From an uncultured Clostridia bacterium (GTDB lineage Bacteria > Bacillota > Clostridia > Christensenellales > UBA1242): a stretch of DNA of 64,000 nucleotides. A program made the position numbers and the translations under genes. Location: the NCBI GenBank assembly GCA_934777505.1, contig CAKVNM010000001.1, forward strand, positions 294,419 to 358,418, read 5' to 3'. How positions within the stretch are numbered: position 1 is the stretch's first letter; the number at the start of each line of letters is the position of its first letter. The notes under the pieces are model-generated. The model ran no database searches. It was not told the origin of the DNA and was given only the letters and a program-made list of their open reading frames with translations. Shown here piece by piece: positions 16,556 to 25,059 of this stretch.

Positions 16556-16825
16556 CTACTTTTTGTTTACTGCTCCGCAGGCTGGGCATTTTGTTTCGTC
16601 ATCTTTAAGTTCTGCTCCACAATACTCACAATGTCTAACATACTTTGCTGGGTTAACCTGCTTGTCTATGCTTTCTTTTAAGGTGTTAATAAACTCTGGT
16701 TGTTGTTCCAAGAGTTTTTGATTATGTTTTGACATTTTAGAAATTCTAACCAAAGCAAAAACAAATACTGCAATAAAAAGAGCAACGAAAACTATTGGAA
16801 TAATGATAAAAAATATTTGGTTCAT
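16556..16825 (-). CDS. small membrane protein with zinc ribbon
   Basis: One N-terminal TM helix and CEYCGAELKDDETKCPACGA. Confidence 0.55.
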   Translation of the reverse strand: MNQIFFIIIPIVFVALFIAVFVFALVRISKMSKHNQKLLEQQPEFINTLKESIDKQVNPAKYVRHCEYCGAELKDDETKCPACGAVNKK

Positions 16826-16899: not shown

Positions 16900-18048
16900 T
16901 TATGATATTTTGCTTAAATAATCTCGATACTTTGCATAACTTGAAGAACCAATATTGTCTGCCACTTGACTTAGCAACTCTTTTGTTTGTCTGTCGAGTG
17001 ACTTTGGCATTTCAACAACAACTTTGACTTTCAAATCTCCACGAGAAGTTGAATGGCCTAGTTTTGTTATGCCCTTGCCTTTGATGTTAAAGGTTGTGTT
17101 GGTTTGAGTTAGTGGTGGAATAACAAGTTCGATTGTTTCGTTGATTGCAGGAACTTTGATTTTTCCGCCAAGCAAACTGATTGTGAATGGAAGTGGTACT
17201 TCAACAATCAAATCAAAGCCGTCACGCTTTAACACTGGATGCGAACCAACAGAAATCAAAAGTTTTAAGTCGCCTTTCGCCCCGTTTGTTCCGTTTGCAT
17301 GACCTTCGTTTTTGATAGACAAAATTTGGTCGTTGTCAATTCCCGCTGGGATTTGAACATTGATTGTTCTTGTTTTTCTAACTGTGCCTGTTCCGCCACA
17401 ATGTTCGCACTTGTTTTTAATAATCTTGCCAGTTCCGTTACAATCCTGACAAGTTCCAACATTTACAACTCTGCCAAGGAAAGTTTGCTGAGTGTATCTC
17501 ACCTGACCTGTGCCGTTACAAGTTGGACAAACAGAGTAGTCGTTGCTTGTTTTTGCACCTGTTCCCGAACAGAACTCGCAAGTTTCAATTCGGCTAACAC
17601 TAATGCTCTTTTTAACACCTGTGCAGGCTTCCATAAACGAAATGTTAACTTTTAGGTTAATATCATCGCCACGAGTATTCTTTGATTGTTTTGAACCGCT
17701 TGAACCACCAAACGCTCCAAAAATATCGCCAAATATTCCGCCAAGGTCGTCAAAACCACCAAAGCCACCGCCAAAGTTGGAACTACTAAATCCGCCAAAA
17801 CCACCGCTGTTTGCACCAAATGGATTGCCGTCTGGCGAGCCAAACTGGTCGTAGTTTTTTCGCTTTTGCTCATCGCCCAAAACTTCGTAGGCTTCGCTGA
17901 TTTCCTTGAACTTGCTTGCTGCCACTTCATCGTTTGGGTGCAAGTCTGGGTGATATTGTTTGGCTAGTTTTCGATAGGCTGACTTTATCTCATCGGCTGA
18001 TGCTGTCTTTGACACTCTAAGAATGTCATAATAATTTTTATTTGCCAT
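16900..18048 (-). CDS. dnaJ: molecular chaperone DnaJ
   Basis: J-domain HPD (YHPDLHP), G/F-rich linker and four CxxCxGxG zinc-finger repeats. Confidence 0.95.
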   Translation of the reverse strand: MANKNYYDILRVSKTASADEIKSAYRKLAKQYHPDLHPNDEVAASKFKEISEAYEVLGDEQKRKNYDQFGSPDGNPFGANSGGFGGFSSSNFGGGFGGFDDLGGIFGDIFGAFGGSSGSKQSKNTRGDDINLKVNISFMEACTGVKKSISVSRIETCEFCSGTGAKTSNDYSVCPTCNGTGQVRYTQQTFLGRVVNVGTCQDCNGTGKIIKNKCEHCGGTGTVRKTRTINVQIPAGIDNDQILSIKNEGHANGTNGAKGDLKLLISVGSHPVLKRDGFDLIVEVPLPFTISLLGGKIKVPAINETIELVIPPLTQTNTTFNIKGKGITKLGHSTSRGDLKVKVVVEMPKSLDRQTKELLSQVADNIGSSSYAKYRDYLSKIS

Positions 18049-18133: not shown

Positions 18134-19993
18134 TTACTTGTTGTCCTCTGTGGTGTATTGGCTTGGGTCAACATTAACATCATCGCCAGTTGTAGAAGAT
18201 GTGTTATTATCTCCTGTTCCTTGCTCTGAGCCTTGACCTTGGTTGTTAGCACCAGTTGAGTTTTGATAAAGTTTTGTTACGATTGGTTCTGTTGTTTTTG
18301 AAAGTGTTTCAAGAGCCTTTCTAATATCATCAGCATTTTCTGCTTGAATATCTTTCTTTGCTTGTTCGATAGCAGTTTCGAGAGTGTGTTTTTCGTCTTC
18401 GGTTAGTTTGTCGGCACTGTCTTTCATCATCTTTTCAAGTCCCAAGATAACACTGTCGGCTTGGTTTCTTGTGTCGATAACTTCCTTTCTCTTTTTGTCT
18501 TCTTCGGCAAATTGTTCTGCTTCTTTTACTGCTTTGTCGATATCTTCTTCTTTAAGGTTAGAAGAAGCAGTGATTGTGATTGATTGTTCCTTGTTTGTTG
18601 CAAGGTCTTTTGCACTAACATGAACAATTCCGTTTGCATCAATATCAAATGTTACTTCGATTTGAGGAACGCCACGAGGTGCAGGTGGAATATCGTTCAA
18701 ACTAAATCTTCCAAGAGTCTTATTGTCTTTTGCAAACTCTCTTTCGCCTTGCAAAACATGAATATCAACACCTGGTTGATTATCTGCTGCTGTTGAGAAG
18801 ATTTGACTCTTTTTTGTAGGGATTGTTGTGTTACGATTGATAATCTTTGTGCATACTCCGCCCAAAGTTTCGATACCAAGTGAAAGTGGTGTTACATCAA
18901 GCAATAGCACATCTTTAACATCGCCCTTTAAAACACCGCCTTGAATTGCTGCACCAACTGCAACACATTCATCTGGGTTGATACCTTTGTATGGTTCTTT
19001 GCCCATGTAGTTTTTAAGTTGTTCGACAACTGCTGGGATTCTGGTTGAACCACCAACCAAGATAACTTTGCTGATATCGTCTTTTGTGATTTTTGCATCT
19101 TTTAGAGCGTTTTCTACTTTTTGAAGTGATGTTTTGATGTAGCCATCAATCAAACTTTCAAATTTTGCTCTTGTTAGAGTGTATTCAAGATGTTTTGGAC
19201 CTGTTGCATCGGCTGTGATAAATGGCAAGTTGATTGTTGCACTTGTTGCAGAAGAAAGGTCGATTTTGGCTTTTTCTGCTGCTTCTTTTAATCTTTGCAT
19301 AGCCATTTTGTCTGTTGACAAATCAATGCCGTTGTTTGCTTTAAAGTCTTCAACAAGAAGATTGATGATTGCGTTATCAAAATCATCGCCACCAAGATGT
19401 GTATCACCGTTGGTTGACAAAACTTCAAACACGCCATCGCCAATTTCAAGAACAGATACATCGAATGTACCACCGCCAAGGTCATAAACCAAGATTTTTT
19501 GGTTAGAATTGTCGGCTTTGTCAAGACCATAAGCAAGTGATGCTGCTGTTGGTTCGTTGATAATTCTTAGAACATTAAGACCTGCAATTTTTCCTGCATC
19601 TTTTGTTGCTTGTCTTTGACTATCATTAAAGTATGCTGGAACAGTTATAACGGCTTCGGTAACCTTTTCGCCAAGATAACTTTCTGCATCTTGTTTTAAT
19701 TTTTGCAAAATCATTGCTGAAATTTCTTGTGGAGAATATTCTTTTCCACCAAGGCTGACTTTTACATCTTCGCCCATTTTTCTTTTAATACTCAAAATAG
19801 TGTTTTCGGCGTTTGCAACTGCTTGACGCTTTGCAACTTGACCTACTAGTCTATCTCCATTTTTGGCAATAGCAACACAACTTGGAGTTGTTCTACCTCC
19901 TTCGCTGTTAGGGATTACAGTTGGTTCGCCGCCTTCCATAACGGCAACGCAACTATTTGTTGTTCCCAAATCAATACCTATAACTTTACTCAT
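18134..19993 (-). CDS. dnaK: molecular chaperone DnaK
   Basis: [17 protein letters not shown] and VGGSTRIP motifs. ATG at 19993 follows AAAGGAGA (the track ORF is extended upstream). Confidence 0.95.
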
Positions 19994-20069: not shown

Positions 20070-20783
20070 TTATAACTTGTTAACTTTGACAACCGAATGA
20101 CGAATAACTTTTCCGTCTAGCATAAATCCTGCTTGATATTCTTCCAAGATTTCGTCTTCCTTTTTGTCTGGGTCGTTACCAGTTAAAACCGCATTGTGAT
20201 AATTTGGGTCAAAAATTTGATTTTCTGTTTCAATTTTTTTAACCCCAAGACTTTCTAGTGACTGCATGATTTGCGAAGCCACAAGGTCGAGTGATTTAAT
20301 AAAATCAGCGTCCGTAACTTGCTTTTTTGCATTGTCGATGCTATCAATCACTGGCAAGAATTTTTCCACCGCTAACACAATCCCGTTTTGTTTGGATTGC
20401 TTTTCGGCTTCTCTTGTTCGTTTGCGATAGTTATCAAACTCTGCTTGAATGCGTTGAGCAAGTTCTAAGTAGTTGTCTTGCTTTTCGCACTCGCAAGTGT
20501 CTTCACAAGGCTCGTCTTGCTTGTCGCAATCACACTCGCCGTCTTCATGACAACCGCAAGTGCAATCATCATCACACTCATGTTTATCATTGCAACCGCA
20601 AGAACAAGTTTCATCGCAAGAGCAATCGCCTTCACAACCGCAAGAGCATTTTTCTTTTTCCTGACCACAAGTGCAATCAGGTGAACATTTGTTTTCTTCG
20701 GTGCAAGTGCAATCTTCCCCGCAAGTGCAGGTGTCATTACAGCCACATGAAGTTTGTTTGTTAAAATGTTTATGTTTAGACAT
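20070..20783 (-). CDS. grpE: nucleotide exchange factor GrpE with Cys-rich N-terminal extension
   Basis: C-terminal two thirds is canonical GrpE ([14 protein letters not shown]...[16 protein letters not shown]). The first 100 residues contain 26 Cys in CxC/CxxxC arrays. GGAGG RBS. Confidence 0.9.
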
Positions 20784-20792
20784 TATTGCCTC

Positions 20793-20891
20793 CTACTTAC
20801 TTTCTTCTTCTTTGTCGTCTTCGTTTTCTTTTTCGTCATCTTTGCTTGGACAAGCAAATGGGCAATTTGAACAATCGTGGTTACAAGCCAT
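20793..20891 (-). CDS. unannotated 32-aa Cys-rich acidic peptide
   Basis: Hand translation gives MACNHDCSNCPFACPSKDDEKENEDDKEEESK. AAGGAGG RBS lies 7 nt upstream, the ATG lies 1 nt after the hrcA stop, and its TAG abuts the grpE RBS. Below the ORF-track size cutoff. Confidence 0.55.
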   Translation of the reverse strand: MACNHDCSNCPFACPSKDDEKENEDDKEEESK

Positions 20892-20892
20892 A

Positions 20893-21957
20893 TTACTTAC
20901 CTCCTTGATTATTGTTGGTATCTGCTTCGAGCAGATTAAGTTTGTTAAGTTCTTCTACAATAAACTTTAACGCACCAGCCGTTCGGGAGTAGTCCATACG
21001 CTCTGGACCAATAACACCGATACTAGCCACTGTGCTACCGTCTATTTTGTATTCGGCCTTGATGACCGAGCAGTTTTCGAGTTCTTCGTTCTCGTTTTCC
21101 GAACCAATTTTGAATGACAAGCCGTCTTTTGTTTCGTCACCGCTAAACACTTTTTTTATCTCGTCTTCGTCTTCCATAAAGTTAAGCACTTTTTTTGCTC
21201 TGTCTATATTGGAATACTCAGGGTTGTTAAGTAGTTTTGTCCTTCCAGCACTGGCAACTTGTTTTGAACAAGTCAAGTTTTCCAAGCACACCATCAAGTT
21301 GTCAAATATTCCCGCAAACGAAACCAAGTCATTTGTCATATCATTAAGATAATGTGGCAAATTTTCGATTAGGTCGGCGATTGTTTTGCCCTTAAAGTGA
21401 TTTGTTAGGAAGTTGCTTGCGTCAATACAGTCATTGTCGCTAACGCCGTTTGATAGTTCCATTGTGTTGTTGATTATGCCACTTTTTGTGCCAATTAACA
21501 CAATCGCACTACCGTCAATTAGTGGTATGATTTTTATGCTTTCAACGATTAGTCCTTTGTAGGAATTAAGCACCACAAAAGTTGGATAATTTGTGGCTTC
21601 GCTGATAACAGACGCAAGTTGACTGACAATCTCGCTAACACTTTCGGTTCGTTTTCTAAAAATTTCCCTAACTGTTAACAGCGACTTTTGGTCGAACTTG
21701 GTGTTTTTCATCAGTTCGTTAACATAAAACCTATACGCTTTGCTGGTTGGAATCCTGCCACTAGAAGTGTGAAGTTGTTTTAAGTACCCCATGGCTTCCA
21801 AGGCATTAAGTTCGTTTCTTAGTGTGGCAGGGCTTATGTCTTTAAGGTGGTTATCATGCACCGCTCCGCTTGTGATGGGACTAGCGGACTGAATGTAGTC
21901 ATTGATACTACTATACAAAATTTTGAGTTTTCTTTCGCTCAGATTTTCGCTAACCAT
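20893..21957 (-). CDS. hrcA: heat-inducible transcription repressor HrcA
   Basis: N-terminal winged helix (LSERKLKIL...ISPATLRNELNALEAMGYL) and the operon position. ATG at 21957 follows GGAGGA. Confidence 0.9.
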   Translation of the reverse strand: MVSENLSERKLKILYSSINDYIQSASPITSGAVHDNHLKDISPATLRNELNALEAMGYLKQLHTSSGRIPTSKAYRFYVNELMKNTKFDQKSLLTVREIFRKRTESVSEIVSQLASVISEATNYPTFVVLNSYKGLIVESIKIIPLIDGSAIVLIGTKSGIINNTMELSNGVSDNDCIDASNFLTNHFKGKTIADLIENLPHYLNDMTNDLVSFAGIFDNLMVCLENLTCSKQVASAGRTKLLNNPEYSNIDRAKKVLNFMEDEDEIKKVFSGDETKDGLSFKIGSENENEELENCSVIKAEYKIDGSTVASIGVIGPERMDYSRTAGALKFIVEELNKLNLLEADTNNNQGGK

Positions 21958-21973
21958 AAGTCCTCCATATATA

Positions 21974-22000
21974 TTAGCACTCATTTCCTTTGACTGCTAG
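21974..22000. promoter_or_regulatory. CIRCE operator (HrcA binding site), imperfect
   Basis: TTAGCACTC-N9-GACTGCTAG versus consensus TTAGCACTC-N9-GAGTGCTAA. One arm is perfect and the other matches 7 of 9. Confidence 0.75.
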
Positions 22001-22611: not shown

Positions 22612-22617
22612 CTTTTT

Positions 22618-22965
22618 AATGAGATAGTCTATAAGCCGAGTTCTGTATTTGACGATTATCTATCTAGACACATTGTTTCCAATATGTTCGAGCGGTGTAT
22701 ATGGCAAAGCGAACAACTTATACGCCATTTATACCTTGCATCAGGTGGGGTTTGCAATGCCCTGCTTGTCACCAAGCAAGCGGTGGTCTCTTACACTCGC
22801 CTTTTCAACCTTGCCGTTTGATAAAATCAACTTGGGCGGTATGCTTTCTGTTGTACTTTCCTTAAAGTCACCCTCACTAGCAGTTAACTAGCACCCTGTT
22901 CTGTGATGCTCGGACTTTCCTCGTGAGTAAAACTCCCGCAATCGTCTGGCTAACTCACTATGAAT
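22618..22965 (-). ncRNA. rnpB: RNase P RNA (type A-like)
   Basis: Minus strand contains GAGGAAAGTCCGAGC (P4/CR-I), CAGGGTGC, GTAAGAGACCACCG, GCAAACCCCACCTG and ACAGAACTCGGCTTATAG (CR-V). 5' ATAGT pairs with 3' ACTAT (P1). Ends are approximate, within about 5 nt. Confidence 0.85.
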
Positions 22966-23825: not shown

Positions 23826-24422
23826 ATGAAAATTAGTAAAAAAGAATTAGAAGCATTAAAAACAGTAATTGAAAGAGATAAAGACAAAGTAAGTTTTGCA
23901 AAAGATTATTTTGTAACAGACAAGAAAGGCAATTTGGCTTGCATAACAAATATAACGGCAGAAAGGGGCGAGTCTTCTTACAACAGTTTGTCTGTTAAGG
24001 AACTTGAATTTAACGGCACAGACTACTACGAAAAAACGGTTGCACTTTGCGACTATATGGTAGTTAATGGAGAAAAAGGCAAGCATATTTTTATAGTACT
24101 AATCGAAGTGCTTTCTTGTGGCAACTATAATCGTGGCTACGGAAGTTTGATTTTAAAATTTTTGGAAGACCAATGCAAACAACTCGGGATTGAAGAAATT
24201 AGGGGTAAATTTAAGCCAATCGCCCCTGCTCGTCCAGAATATGTTAGAAACTTTTACACTGTTAACGGTTTTGAATTTTATGACCACCTTGGCTATGACA
24301 TGATTAGAAAAATGCAACCAACTTTTAGAAGTTTTGACAGCAAAAATATCAACGGCGTTGACTTTGTTTGCTTGAACGATAACGAAATTACTGTTTATGA
24401 AGAAGATATTTTAACAAAATAA
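23826..24422 (+). CDS. GNAT-like acetyltransferase-fold protein, paralog 1
   Basis: C-terminal half IEV..NRGYGSLILKFLE...EEIRG..P.APARPEYVRNFYTVNGFEF resembles GNAT motif A/B. The N-terminal half is unknown. Confidence 0.55.
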   Translation: MKISKKELEALKTVIERDKDKVSFAKDYFVTDKKGNLACITNITAERGESSYNSLSVKELEFNGTDYYEKTVALCDYMVVNGEKGKHIFIVLIEVLSCGNYNRGYGSLILKFLEDQCKQLGIEEIRGKFKPIAPARPEYVRNFYTVNGFEFYDHLGYDMIRKMQPTFRSFDSKNINGVDFVCLNDNEITVYEEDILTK

Positions 24423-24435
24423 AAAGAGAGAAATC

Positions 24436-25059
24436 ATGACAACAGAAAATGAAAATTTGATTGCTTTAAAAGAATTTTTAAGCAAAGAAAAACAAAAAAA
24501 TCCCGACACTGAACATTATTTTGTAATCGACAAGTTTGGACGATGGCTGATTTTAACAAGAGGCAAAGCCGACAAAGAATGGTCAAGTTTTGTTAGTGCA
24601 AGCCTTAGGAGCGTAAGTTTTAAAGACGGCAAAGTTAGCCGAACAAGATTAGTTGCAAACTGCGACTACATTCTCTGCAATCCCGACAAAACCTACATCA
24701 AATTTAAGGGCAAACATCACCTTTACATCAGTTTGATAGAAGTATATAGCGAGCAAGATTTTAACAAGGGTTATGGCACAATTTTGCTAAGATTTTTGGA
24801 AAAAGAAGCCTTGAAATATAGCCTTGAAGAAATCAGGGGACTATGCGTTCCAATGCCACCTGCTCGTCCAGAATATGTTAAAAATTTTTATAAAGTTAAT
24901 GGTTTTAGATTTTACAAAAAGAAAAACAATCTTTGCATTATAAAACCAAAGTTAACATTTAGAAAACTGGACGAAATTCAAAAAAACGGACTATCATTTT
25001 TGATTTTGAACGAACTTGTTAACACTAGCGAAGAAGTCGAAGAAGTACAAGAATTTTAA
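24436..25059 (+). CDS. GNAT-like acetyltransferase-fold protein, paralog 2
   Basis: Collinear with paralog 1 (IEV..FNKGYGTILLRFLE...EEIRG..PMPPARPEYVKNFYKVNGFRF). Confidence 0.55.
   Translation: MTTENENLIALKEFLSKEKQKNPDTEHYFVIDKFGRWLILTRGKADKEWSSFVSASLRSVSFKDGKVSRTRLVANCDYILCNPDKTYIKFKGKHHLYISLIEVYSEQDFNKGYGTILLRFLEKEALKYSLEEIRGLCVPMPPARPEYVKNFYKVNGFRFYKKKNNLCIIKPKLTFRKLDEIQKNGLSFLILNELVNTSEEVEEVQEF

Follow-up and report, generated by a model that had tools for sequence, protein, structure and literature searches.

The grpE gene carried by the minus strand of the window, the 64,000-nucleotide stretch of an uncultured Clostridia genome that was analyzed here, encodes a GrpE nucleotide exchange factor with a canonical C-terminal domain and an N-terminal tail that contains 26 cysteine residues. 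The tail is a real, cysteine-specific trait that is conserved within its lineage and variable in length. Its composition and the spacing of its motifs plausibly fit a metallothionein-like metal–thiolate domain. With moderate confidence we view the protein as a functional GrpE, regulated by HrcA and its CIRCE operator (controlling inverted repeat of chaperone expression), onto which a domain of this type has been placed as a stress-inducible metal buffer. We infer metal binding, the metals concerned and the physiological role of the tail from the sequence.

The cysteine-rich tail and the GrpE domain

The initial annotation had reported 26 cysteines within the first 100 residues, ahead of a canonical GrpE and in one continuous reading frame with it. 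Translation of 20070..20783 gave a sequence identical to the one reported there, confirmed that the frame is uninterrupted, and placed all 26 cysteines within residues 13-99 in CxC, Cx3C and Cx5C arrangements. Residues 1-104 also contain 15 Asp, 14 Glu, 9 Lys, 9 Thr and 8 Gly, and the sole aromatic residue of the tail is a Phe at position 7, outside the cysteine core. The remainder of the protein is an ordinary GrpE. Residues 100-236 matched Pfam PF01025 (E=4.3e-33, profile positions 25-165 of 165), the NCBIfam GrpE equivalog models also matched, and the PDB GrpE chains 4ani, 3a6m and 1dkg aligned from residue 100, which corresponds to residue 53 of Escherichia coli GrpE. An AlphaFold2 prediction made with a 43-sequence alignment gave the GrpE fold (long N-terminal helix, helical bundle and C-terminal beta domain) from residue 97 with a predicted local distance difference test (pLDDT) score above 92; the helices span residues 97-155 and 159-178 and are followed by six strands. 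In the same prediction residues 1-96 were unstructured coil, with pLDDT means of 44-60 per 10-residue block. The canonical fold starts at about residue 97-100.

Cysteine makes up 1.5% of the residues encoded by the other 47 long open reading frames (ORFs) of the window, and the second-richest 100-residue stretch, the zinc finger of DnaJ, contains 9 cysteines. The probability of finding at least 26 cysteines in 100 residues is ~1e-24, and chance is excluded as the origin of the cysteine density of the tail. A cysteine-rich habit of the whole genome was considered and rejected for the window, as the 64 kb contain no further real cysteine-dense ORF. A nucleotide tandem repeat was looked for in the cysteine-coding region of grpE and none was found; the tail is therefore not a fresh slippage product, and a recent tandem duplication was rejected on the same grounds.

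A more trivial explanation would be a wrong start codon or another gene-calling artefact, such that the cysteine region would not be part of GrpE. The GGAGG ribosome-binding site named in the initial annotation, a strong one, is indeed present 7 nt before the grpE ATG, and the next in-frame ATG, GTG or TTG is codon 136, which lies inside the GrpE fold. Because there is no in-frame start between these codons, a complete GrpE having its dimerisation helix must include the tail, which is thus an obligatory part of any complete GrpE translation product. The initial annotation had named two findings that would speak against its view, an internal start downstream of the cysteine region and a separate or degraded ORF in relatives. 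Neither was encountered: no start codon precedes codon 136, and the extension runs on into GrpE in dozens of lineages. Contigs of up to 370 kb from ENA, Logan and NCBI, which represent three or more independent assemblies, encode the identical GrpE protein, and the grpE DNA is identical between loci L081 and L082, so that an assembly artefact is excluded. The earlier statement that the extension is not an annotation artefact thus holds.

What favors a wrong start is a set of four 273-residue database GrpEs (P0001, P0124, P0126 and P0127) that have a different N-terminus, in which 36 additional residues precede the tail and a small upstream ORF is joined on. However, at the P0001 locus (L083 2347-3168) the DNA carries the same TAG as the window at the position where the protein shows Gln, and the 273-residue form stems from a gene caller having read this TAG as Gln. 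The frame relation of the small ORF to grpE is also not kept in L084 or L088, and a fusion of the small ORF to GrpE was rejected. The 273-residue entries are a calling artefact that can mislead homology-based start-site calls. With a single usable start and contiguity in relatives, the wrong-start explanation is already essentially refuted.

Distribution, composition and proposed function of the tail

The initial annotation took the tail to be a one-off and proposed that GrpE orthologs be examined for it. The tail proved instead to be a widespread family trait of variable length: at least 6 N-terminal cysteines are present in 67 of the nearest 120 GrpEs, 1-5 in another 18, and none in 35. In an exhaustive HMMER search for GrpE over 1.84 billion cluster representatives, of which the best 148 matches were examined, 37 of these 148, each representing a 50%-identity cluster, carried 6 or more cysteines at the N-terminus. 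The extremes are P0150, with 45 cysteines in 159 residues, and P0163, with 35. A neighbour-joining tree built from 253 GrpE domains shows the cysteine-rich state clustering by clade, and the members of the window's clade (~30 sequences on the tree) have 6-29 cysteines throughout, the exception being P0013 (L084 5001-5585). This protein is the nearest by GrpE domain (76% identity) and has a 68-residue N-terminus with only 3 cysteines; its locus retains the small upstream ORF and full synteny. The named sources of the cysteine-rich GrpEs are all uncultured Clostridia ('Catabacter' metagenome-assembled genomes (MAGs) and Candidatus Apopatousia equi of the Christensenellales), and the host MAGs are from human, horse, rabbit and chicken gut. 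No cultured isolate with a cysteine-rich GrpE is found among the 80 genome loci listed. The carriers are probably Christensenellales-like.

The cores of the 67 cysteine-rich tails consist of 31% Cys, 14% Glu, 13% Asp, 10% Asn, 8% Gly, 5.5% Lys and 5% His, and none of the hydrophobic and aromatic residues F, Y, L, V, I and M exceeds 0.4%. Half of the spacings between consecutive cysteines in these tails are CxC (50%), followed by Cx3C (25%), Cx5C (8%), CC (3%) and CxxC (2.6%). The cysteine content of ~31% is kept across GrpEs of merely 45-60% identity. The tails of relatives often contain histidine runs (e.g., HHKHHKH and HHNHHHHHNHHH). A second GrpE architecture (P0190, P0192, P0195 and P0225; L006 2061-3200) has an N-terminus of 170-260 residues in which a predicted amphipathic or hydrophobic stretch is followed by 3-8 C-x-x-D-C-D-C-G-C repeats with spacers of about 10 residues, a long histidine run (e.g., HHNHHHHHNHHH) and then the GrpE domain.

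Ten strain-level variants of the window protein differ in amino acids only within residues 1-100, the GrpE domain being unchanged, and the only one of these variants in which a cysteine is hit (C56Y) is encoded by a 1.2 kb contig. Comparison of the window DNA with that of L083 gave 7 nonsynonymous changes in the tail, all of which spare cysteine, together with a synonymous TGT>TGC change, and 5 changes in the GrpE domain, all synonymous. When four species-level clusters are taken together, 32 of 316 sites are variable in the tail and 21 of 535 in the GrpE domain.

It is improbable, in our judgment, that the tail is a functionless low-complexity expansion of a disordered N-terminus, tolerated by the cell and produced by compositional drift or slippage. 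Such an origin would accord with the extreme variability in length, the rapid evolution of the non-cysteine positions, the close relative P0013 that is nearly devoid of a cysteine tail, and the disorder predicted by AlphaFold2. However, cysteine is rare in the window and chemically costly, yet its high content persists among the divergent GrpEs. Moreover, the CxC/Cx3C spacing is regular rather than random, the coding DNA has no tandem repeat, and hydrophobic residues are excluded from the tails.

Searches of family databases returned little. The tail matched no Pfam family even at E<=10 and no NCBIfam family, and a single-tail HMMER search of 5.8 billion proteins found no homologues because composition filtering suppresses such a sequence. 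A profile of tails was needed. Searching the same 5.8 billion proteins with a profile built from 29 tails gave 31 matches, which were 27 GrpEs, 2 DUF1292 proteins and 2 others. The DUF1292 proteins (P0302, and P0311 at L090 1220-1639) have the same CxCG[DE][DE] module inserted in mid-protein. Of the other two, P0312 (L092 901-1500) has modules at both ends that flank a central domain, and its gene adjoins ychF; the second is P0298. The module is thus portable between proteins, yet it is overwhelmingly associated with GrpE. The module-bearing DUF1292 proteins are encoded beside an FtsK/EssC-like ATPase gene and a WXG100 gene.

Metallothioneins generally have a cysteine content of ~15-30% in CxC, CxxC or CC arrangements, and the tail, with 26 cysteines in 100 residues, falls in this range. 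The near absence of aromatic and hydrophobic residues, a second metallothionein characteristic, holds for both the window tail and the family cores. In contrast to a small free-standing protein, the tail is fused to a 137-residue GrpE domain. The only database resemblances of the module, both sub-threshold, are to metallothioneins: the best PDB match of the tail is a Cd-metallothionein (6qk5, E=2.7, below significance), and Pfam Metallothio_2 matched P0302 at E=0.054, under the cut-off.

In the metal-buffer reading that we prefer, the short disordered N-terminus of GrpE would have been replaced by a metallothionein-like domain of ~90 residues, the 26 thiolates of which, together with flanking Asp, Glu and His residues, would wrap several soft metal ions into metal–thiolate clusters. 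Candidate metals would be Zn(II), Cu(I) or Cd(II), and possibly Ni or Co in those tails where histidine runs are present. By analogy with the 20-cysteine mammalian metallothionein, each chain would hold ~9 divalent or ~15 Cu(I) ions. The GrpE dimer is parallel, which would bring the two tails next to each other where the long helices end. Because grpE is within an HrcA/CIRCE-controlled operon, proteotoxic, metal or oxidative stress would automatically bring more capacity to buffer metal. The range of cysteine number (0-45) and the occurrence of the module in DUF1292 and two other proteins suggest an autonomous module that is valued for capacity, rather than a precise regulatory element. Taken with the drift of the inter-cysteine sequence and the histidine runs, they point to capacity-type buffering over a precise switch.

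Several observations weigh against this assignment or blunt the evidence for it. Given the near-loss of cysteine in P0013, at least one lineage can dispense with the tail. When 29 tails are aligned, Met1 and 11 cysteines are the sole columns that are invariant or at least 90% conserved, but low-complexity cysteine-rich alignments favor cysteine columns by construction and this column-conservation evidence is soft. The depletion of cysteine among the variable tail sites is weak (3 of 32 fall on cysteine, where 6.7 are expected; P ~0.07), and strain-level protection of cysteine is thus suggestive, being in the expected direction and not significant. The tail gave no significant match to the curated metallothionein families (Pfam PF00131, PF01439, PF02069 and others; PDB). 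The low-confidence coil predicted by AlphaFold2 would be expected of an apo-metallothionein and is uninformative either way. Finally, sequence does not reveal which metal would be bound.

The main alternative, though a rather unlikely one, is that the tail acts on the DnaK cycle as a switch governed by redox state or metal. A zinc–thiolate tail would be oxidized by O2 or reactive oxygen species, or would be loaded and unloaded with metal, and the resulting disulfides, metal release or compaction near the substrate-binding domain of DnaK would alter nucleotide exchange or substrate release in the manner of Hsp33 and Ruc. Work on GrpE and DnaK of E. coli and Geobacillus kaustophilus locates the N-terminal segment of GrpE close to where DnaK has its substrate-binding domain, and it is this segment, the part ahead of E. 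coli residue 53, that the tail replaces. The hosts of the tail are gut anaerobes, and Zn–Cys redox-switched chaperones do exist, including the HrcA-regulated Ruc (PMC7448276). On the other hand a switch would be expected to have a fixed geometry, yet the cysteine number ranges from 0 to 45 and the inter-cysteine sequence drifts freely, the module is also present in unrelated proteins, and the tail lacks the CxxC...CxxC pattern that marks the zinc centres of Hsp33 and Ruc, CxxC accounting for 2.6% of the spacings. No single 4-cysteine zinc centre of the Hsp33/Ruc type with paired CxxC motifs was found in the tail, nor any related Pfam match. The more specific proposal of a metal- or redox-gated control of the Hsp70 cycle, in which metal loading or oxidation of two juxtaposed 26-cysteine tails, placed at the GrpE dimer tip, would adjust nucleotide exchange or substrate release by DnaK, is likewise doubtful and we put it forward only tentatively. 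Were it true, there would be a direct metal and oxidant input into the proteostasis of strict anaerobes.

The heat-shock operon and neighbouring genes

On the minus strand the order is CIRCE, hrcA, a 32-residue ORF, grpE, dnaK and dnaJ (Table 1). The hrcA-grpE-dnaK-dnaJ gene order given in the initial annotation was borne out, but the small ORF between hrcA and grpE had been overlooked. The hrcA-smORF-grpE-dnaK-dnaJ cluster, with dnaK and dnaJ downstream of the CIRCE-like HrcA operator, is a class I heat-shock operon under HrcA/CIRCE control, and its synteny is kept in L084, L086, L088 and L089. The likely true start of hrcA gives a 354-residue product, the length also found in L082 and L083. 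Syntenic dnaJ orthologues matched the Pfam families DnaJ, DnaJ_C and DnaJ_CXXCXGXG. The wider synteny common to relatives runs from RNase J through two paralogues and a sigma factor (followed in the window by the RNase P RNA) to hrcA and onward.

Table 1 Features of the grpE region of the window, with positions in the window
Feature	Position	Strand	Observations
grpE	20070-20783	-	237 residues; translation identical to that of the initial annotation
grpE codons 1-100, cysteine-rich, metallothionein-like N-terminal extension	20484..20783	-	26 Cys; no Pfam match
grpE codons 101-237 and stop, canonical GrpE domain	20070..20483	-	Pfam, NCBIfam, AlphaFold2, PDB
GGAGG ribosome-binding site of grpE	20789..20793	-	7 nt upstream of ATG; overlaps TAG stop of small ORF
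Small ORF, 32 residues (MACNHDCSNCPFACPSKDDEKENEDDKEEESK)	20793..20891	-	CX3CX2CX3C-P motif, then acidic tail
hrcA, heat-shock repressor	20893..21957	-	Pfam HrcA E=5e-48
CIRCE-like inverted repeat TTAGCACTC-N9-GACTGCTAG, HrcA operator upstream of hrcA	21974..22000	.	Single match, 2 mismatches; 0.04 expected by chance
dnaK	18134..19993	-	619 residues; Pfam HSP70 E=8e-252; exact protein P0141, 619 residues
dnaJ	16900..18048	-	Four usual CxxCxGxG zinc-finger motifs
89-residue ORF	16556-16825	-	Just downstream of dnaJ
RNase P RNA, bacterial class A	22616-22957	-	262 bits; between hrcA and sigma-factor gene
Tandem paralogue 1	23826-24422	+	198 residues; no Pfam family
Tandem paralogue 2	24436-25059	+	207 residues; no Pfam family

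The 32-residue ORF is provided with a separate AAGGAGG site and starts with an ATG one base past the hrcA stop codon. It is identical in four assemblies and was called as a gene in L082. Orthologues at the same position are found in L084 (MYDNDKLNECDHDCAHCPFVCPSNNSGDDKKEDDDKE), L086 (MCYECDHDCNSCGQECPFAKDVEDAKKAIESEKEE) and L088 (MGCNHDCENCIFGSCSTNEEEENDEEETDDKDNK), and the ORF is absent at the corresponding position in L089. Its database resemblances are weak, sub-threshold and at the level of the motif (Fer4_10, E=0.02; radical-SAM STM4011, E=0.01). The ORF may encode an undescribed small heat-shock-operon protein, and under the tentative proposal of a gated Hsp70 cycle this conserved 4-cysteine protein could be a partner that donates, say, metal or electrons. 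At L002 (about 1170-1670), from an 'uncultured Catabacter' MAG, the HrcA frame ends in a cysteine-rich tail (…MGKKCDGNCDSCKGCGDGNDNE), and another small cysteine-rich ORF (MIDKTRCFGDCDTCSFGHNCSCLYDEDYDDDCAYYDCESDDCDNCDLKD) lies between hrcA and grpE.

The adjoining small ORF bears on a further explanation, that the GrpE tail binds an Fe–S cluster and links DnaK/GrpE to Fe–S maturation in the way known for HscA and Ssq1/Mge1. Elsewhere Hsp70 systems do have a role in Fe–S biogenesis, the tail offers many cysteines, and the CX3CX2CX3CP motif of the small ORF is ferredoxin-like. We nevertheless regard this as very improbable. The tail has neither the ferredoxin CxxCxxCxxxCP spacing nor the radical-SAM CX3CX2C spacing; no CxxCxxC...CP or other Fe–S spacing was found in it, and CxC dominates. 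Neither Fer4 nor any other Fe–S Pfam family matched the tail, and no Fe–S assembly genes are present among the annotated neighbours in the window or in the syntenic loci.

Other features of the region were also recorded. The 89-residue ORF is predicted to encode a protein with a single transmembrane helix and, at the C-terminus, a zinc ribbon (CEYCG…CPACG; Pfam Zn_Ribbon_1, E=4e-6), and counterparts of 93 and 92 residues occupy the same position in L088 and L089, respectively. Mechanically listed ORFs that lie over the RNase P RNA gene are spurious. The tandem paralogues are located between the sigma-factor gene and RNase J, a synteny kept in L081, L084 and L086, and share the motif …GYG.(L/I)(I/L)L(K/R)FLE…EEIRG…PARPEYV.NFY.VNGF.FY, the GYG element of which is, we assume, reminiscent of GNAT acetyltransferases.

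Comparison with known systems

The canonical bacterial GrpE (PF01025; 1DKG of E. coli, 4ANI of G. kaustophilus and 3A6M of Thermus thermophilus) has the same 137-residue C-terminal domain, the same fold and the same hrcA-grpE-dnaK-dnaJ operon. Its N-terminus is short, charged and free of cysteine, as in the 35 cysteine-free GrpEs among the 120 nearest relatives, whereas that of the window GrpE has ~90 residues and 26 cysteines. Full-text literature searches found no description of a cysteine-rich, cysteine-cluster or metal-binding GrpE, in agreement with the initial annotation, which knew of no GrpE with a cysteine-cluster domain. The co-chaperone and the metal-binding type of composition are both already known; what is new, and apparently undescribed, is their widespread combination. 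Public records label the cysteine-tailed proteins simply 'nucleotide exchange factor GrpE', a domain-based annotation that conceals the tail completely. GrpE is among the best-studied co-chaperones, and here a clade of uncultured animal-gut Clostridia has a version with 6-45 cysteines.

Metallothioneins of several kinds (plant type 1; fungal Cu-metallothionein, with CxCxxxCxC; bacterial SmtA/BmtA and MymT) resemble the tail in having ~30% cysteine, few aromatic residues and a predominance of CxC. They are disordered in the absence of metal, and the tail is likewise predicted to be coil. The CxCxxxCxCxxxCxC pattern of the tail we take to be that of the cysteine domains of plant type-1 metallothioneins. 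Metallothioneins are, however, free-standing proteins in curated families, whereas the tail is a domain fused to GrpE that has no significant family match and for which metal binding is a prediction. Bacterial metallothioneins are few, and a tail that did bind metal would add a new metallothionein-like module to them. Such a tail would also physically couple metal or oxidative stress with the DnaK cycle of strict anaerobes.

Hsp33, Ruc and the DnaJ zinc finger are likewise cysteine–metal centres within the heat-shock and chaperone network, the metal of the GrpE tail being a predicted one. They have one or two defined 4-cysteine CxxC zinc centres, whereas the tail has 26 cysteines in CxC/Cx3C arrays of variable number. 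Ruc (Rv0991c of Mycobacterium tuberculosis) is HrcA-regulated, and in many phyla its gene is frequently found next to dnaK, grpE and hrcA (PMC7448276). The 32-residue protein encoded between hrcA and grpE is loosely like Ruc in its 4 cysteines and disordered tail, but it is not a zinc ribbon.

The closest analogue, which appears to follow the same design logic, is HspA of Helicobacter pylori, a GroES having a C-terminal domain B of 27 residues with 4 cysteines and 8 histidines that binds Ni (PMC5116745). Deletion of domain B lowers both the cellular Ni content and Ni tolerance (PMC5116745). HspA and the window GrpE are alike in being heat-shock co-chaperones with a terminal, lineage-restricted Cys- or Cys/His-rich tail, which in HspA serves metal storage and detoxification (PMC5116745). 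They differ in that HspA is a GroES rather than a GrpE and that its tail is C-terminal rather than N-terminal and has 27 residues, as against ~90 residues with 26 cysteines and few histidines; the two are not homologous. If the GrpE tail binds metal, GrpE would be the second heat-shock co-chaperone, after H. pylori HspA, to have been independently recruited for metal handling.

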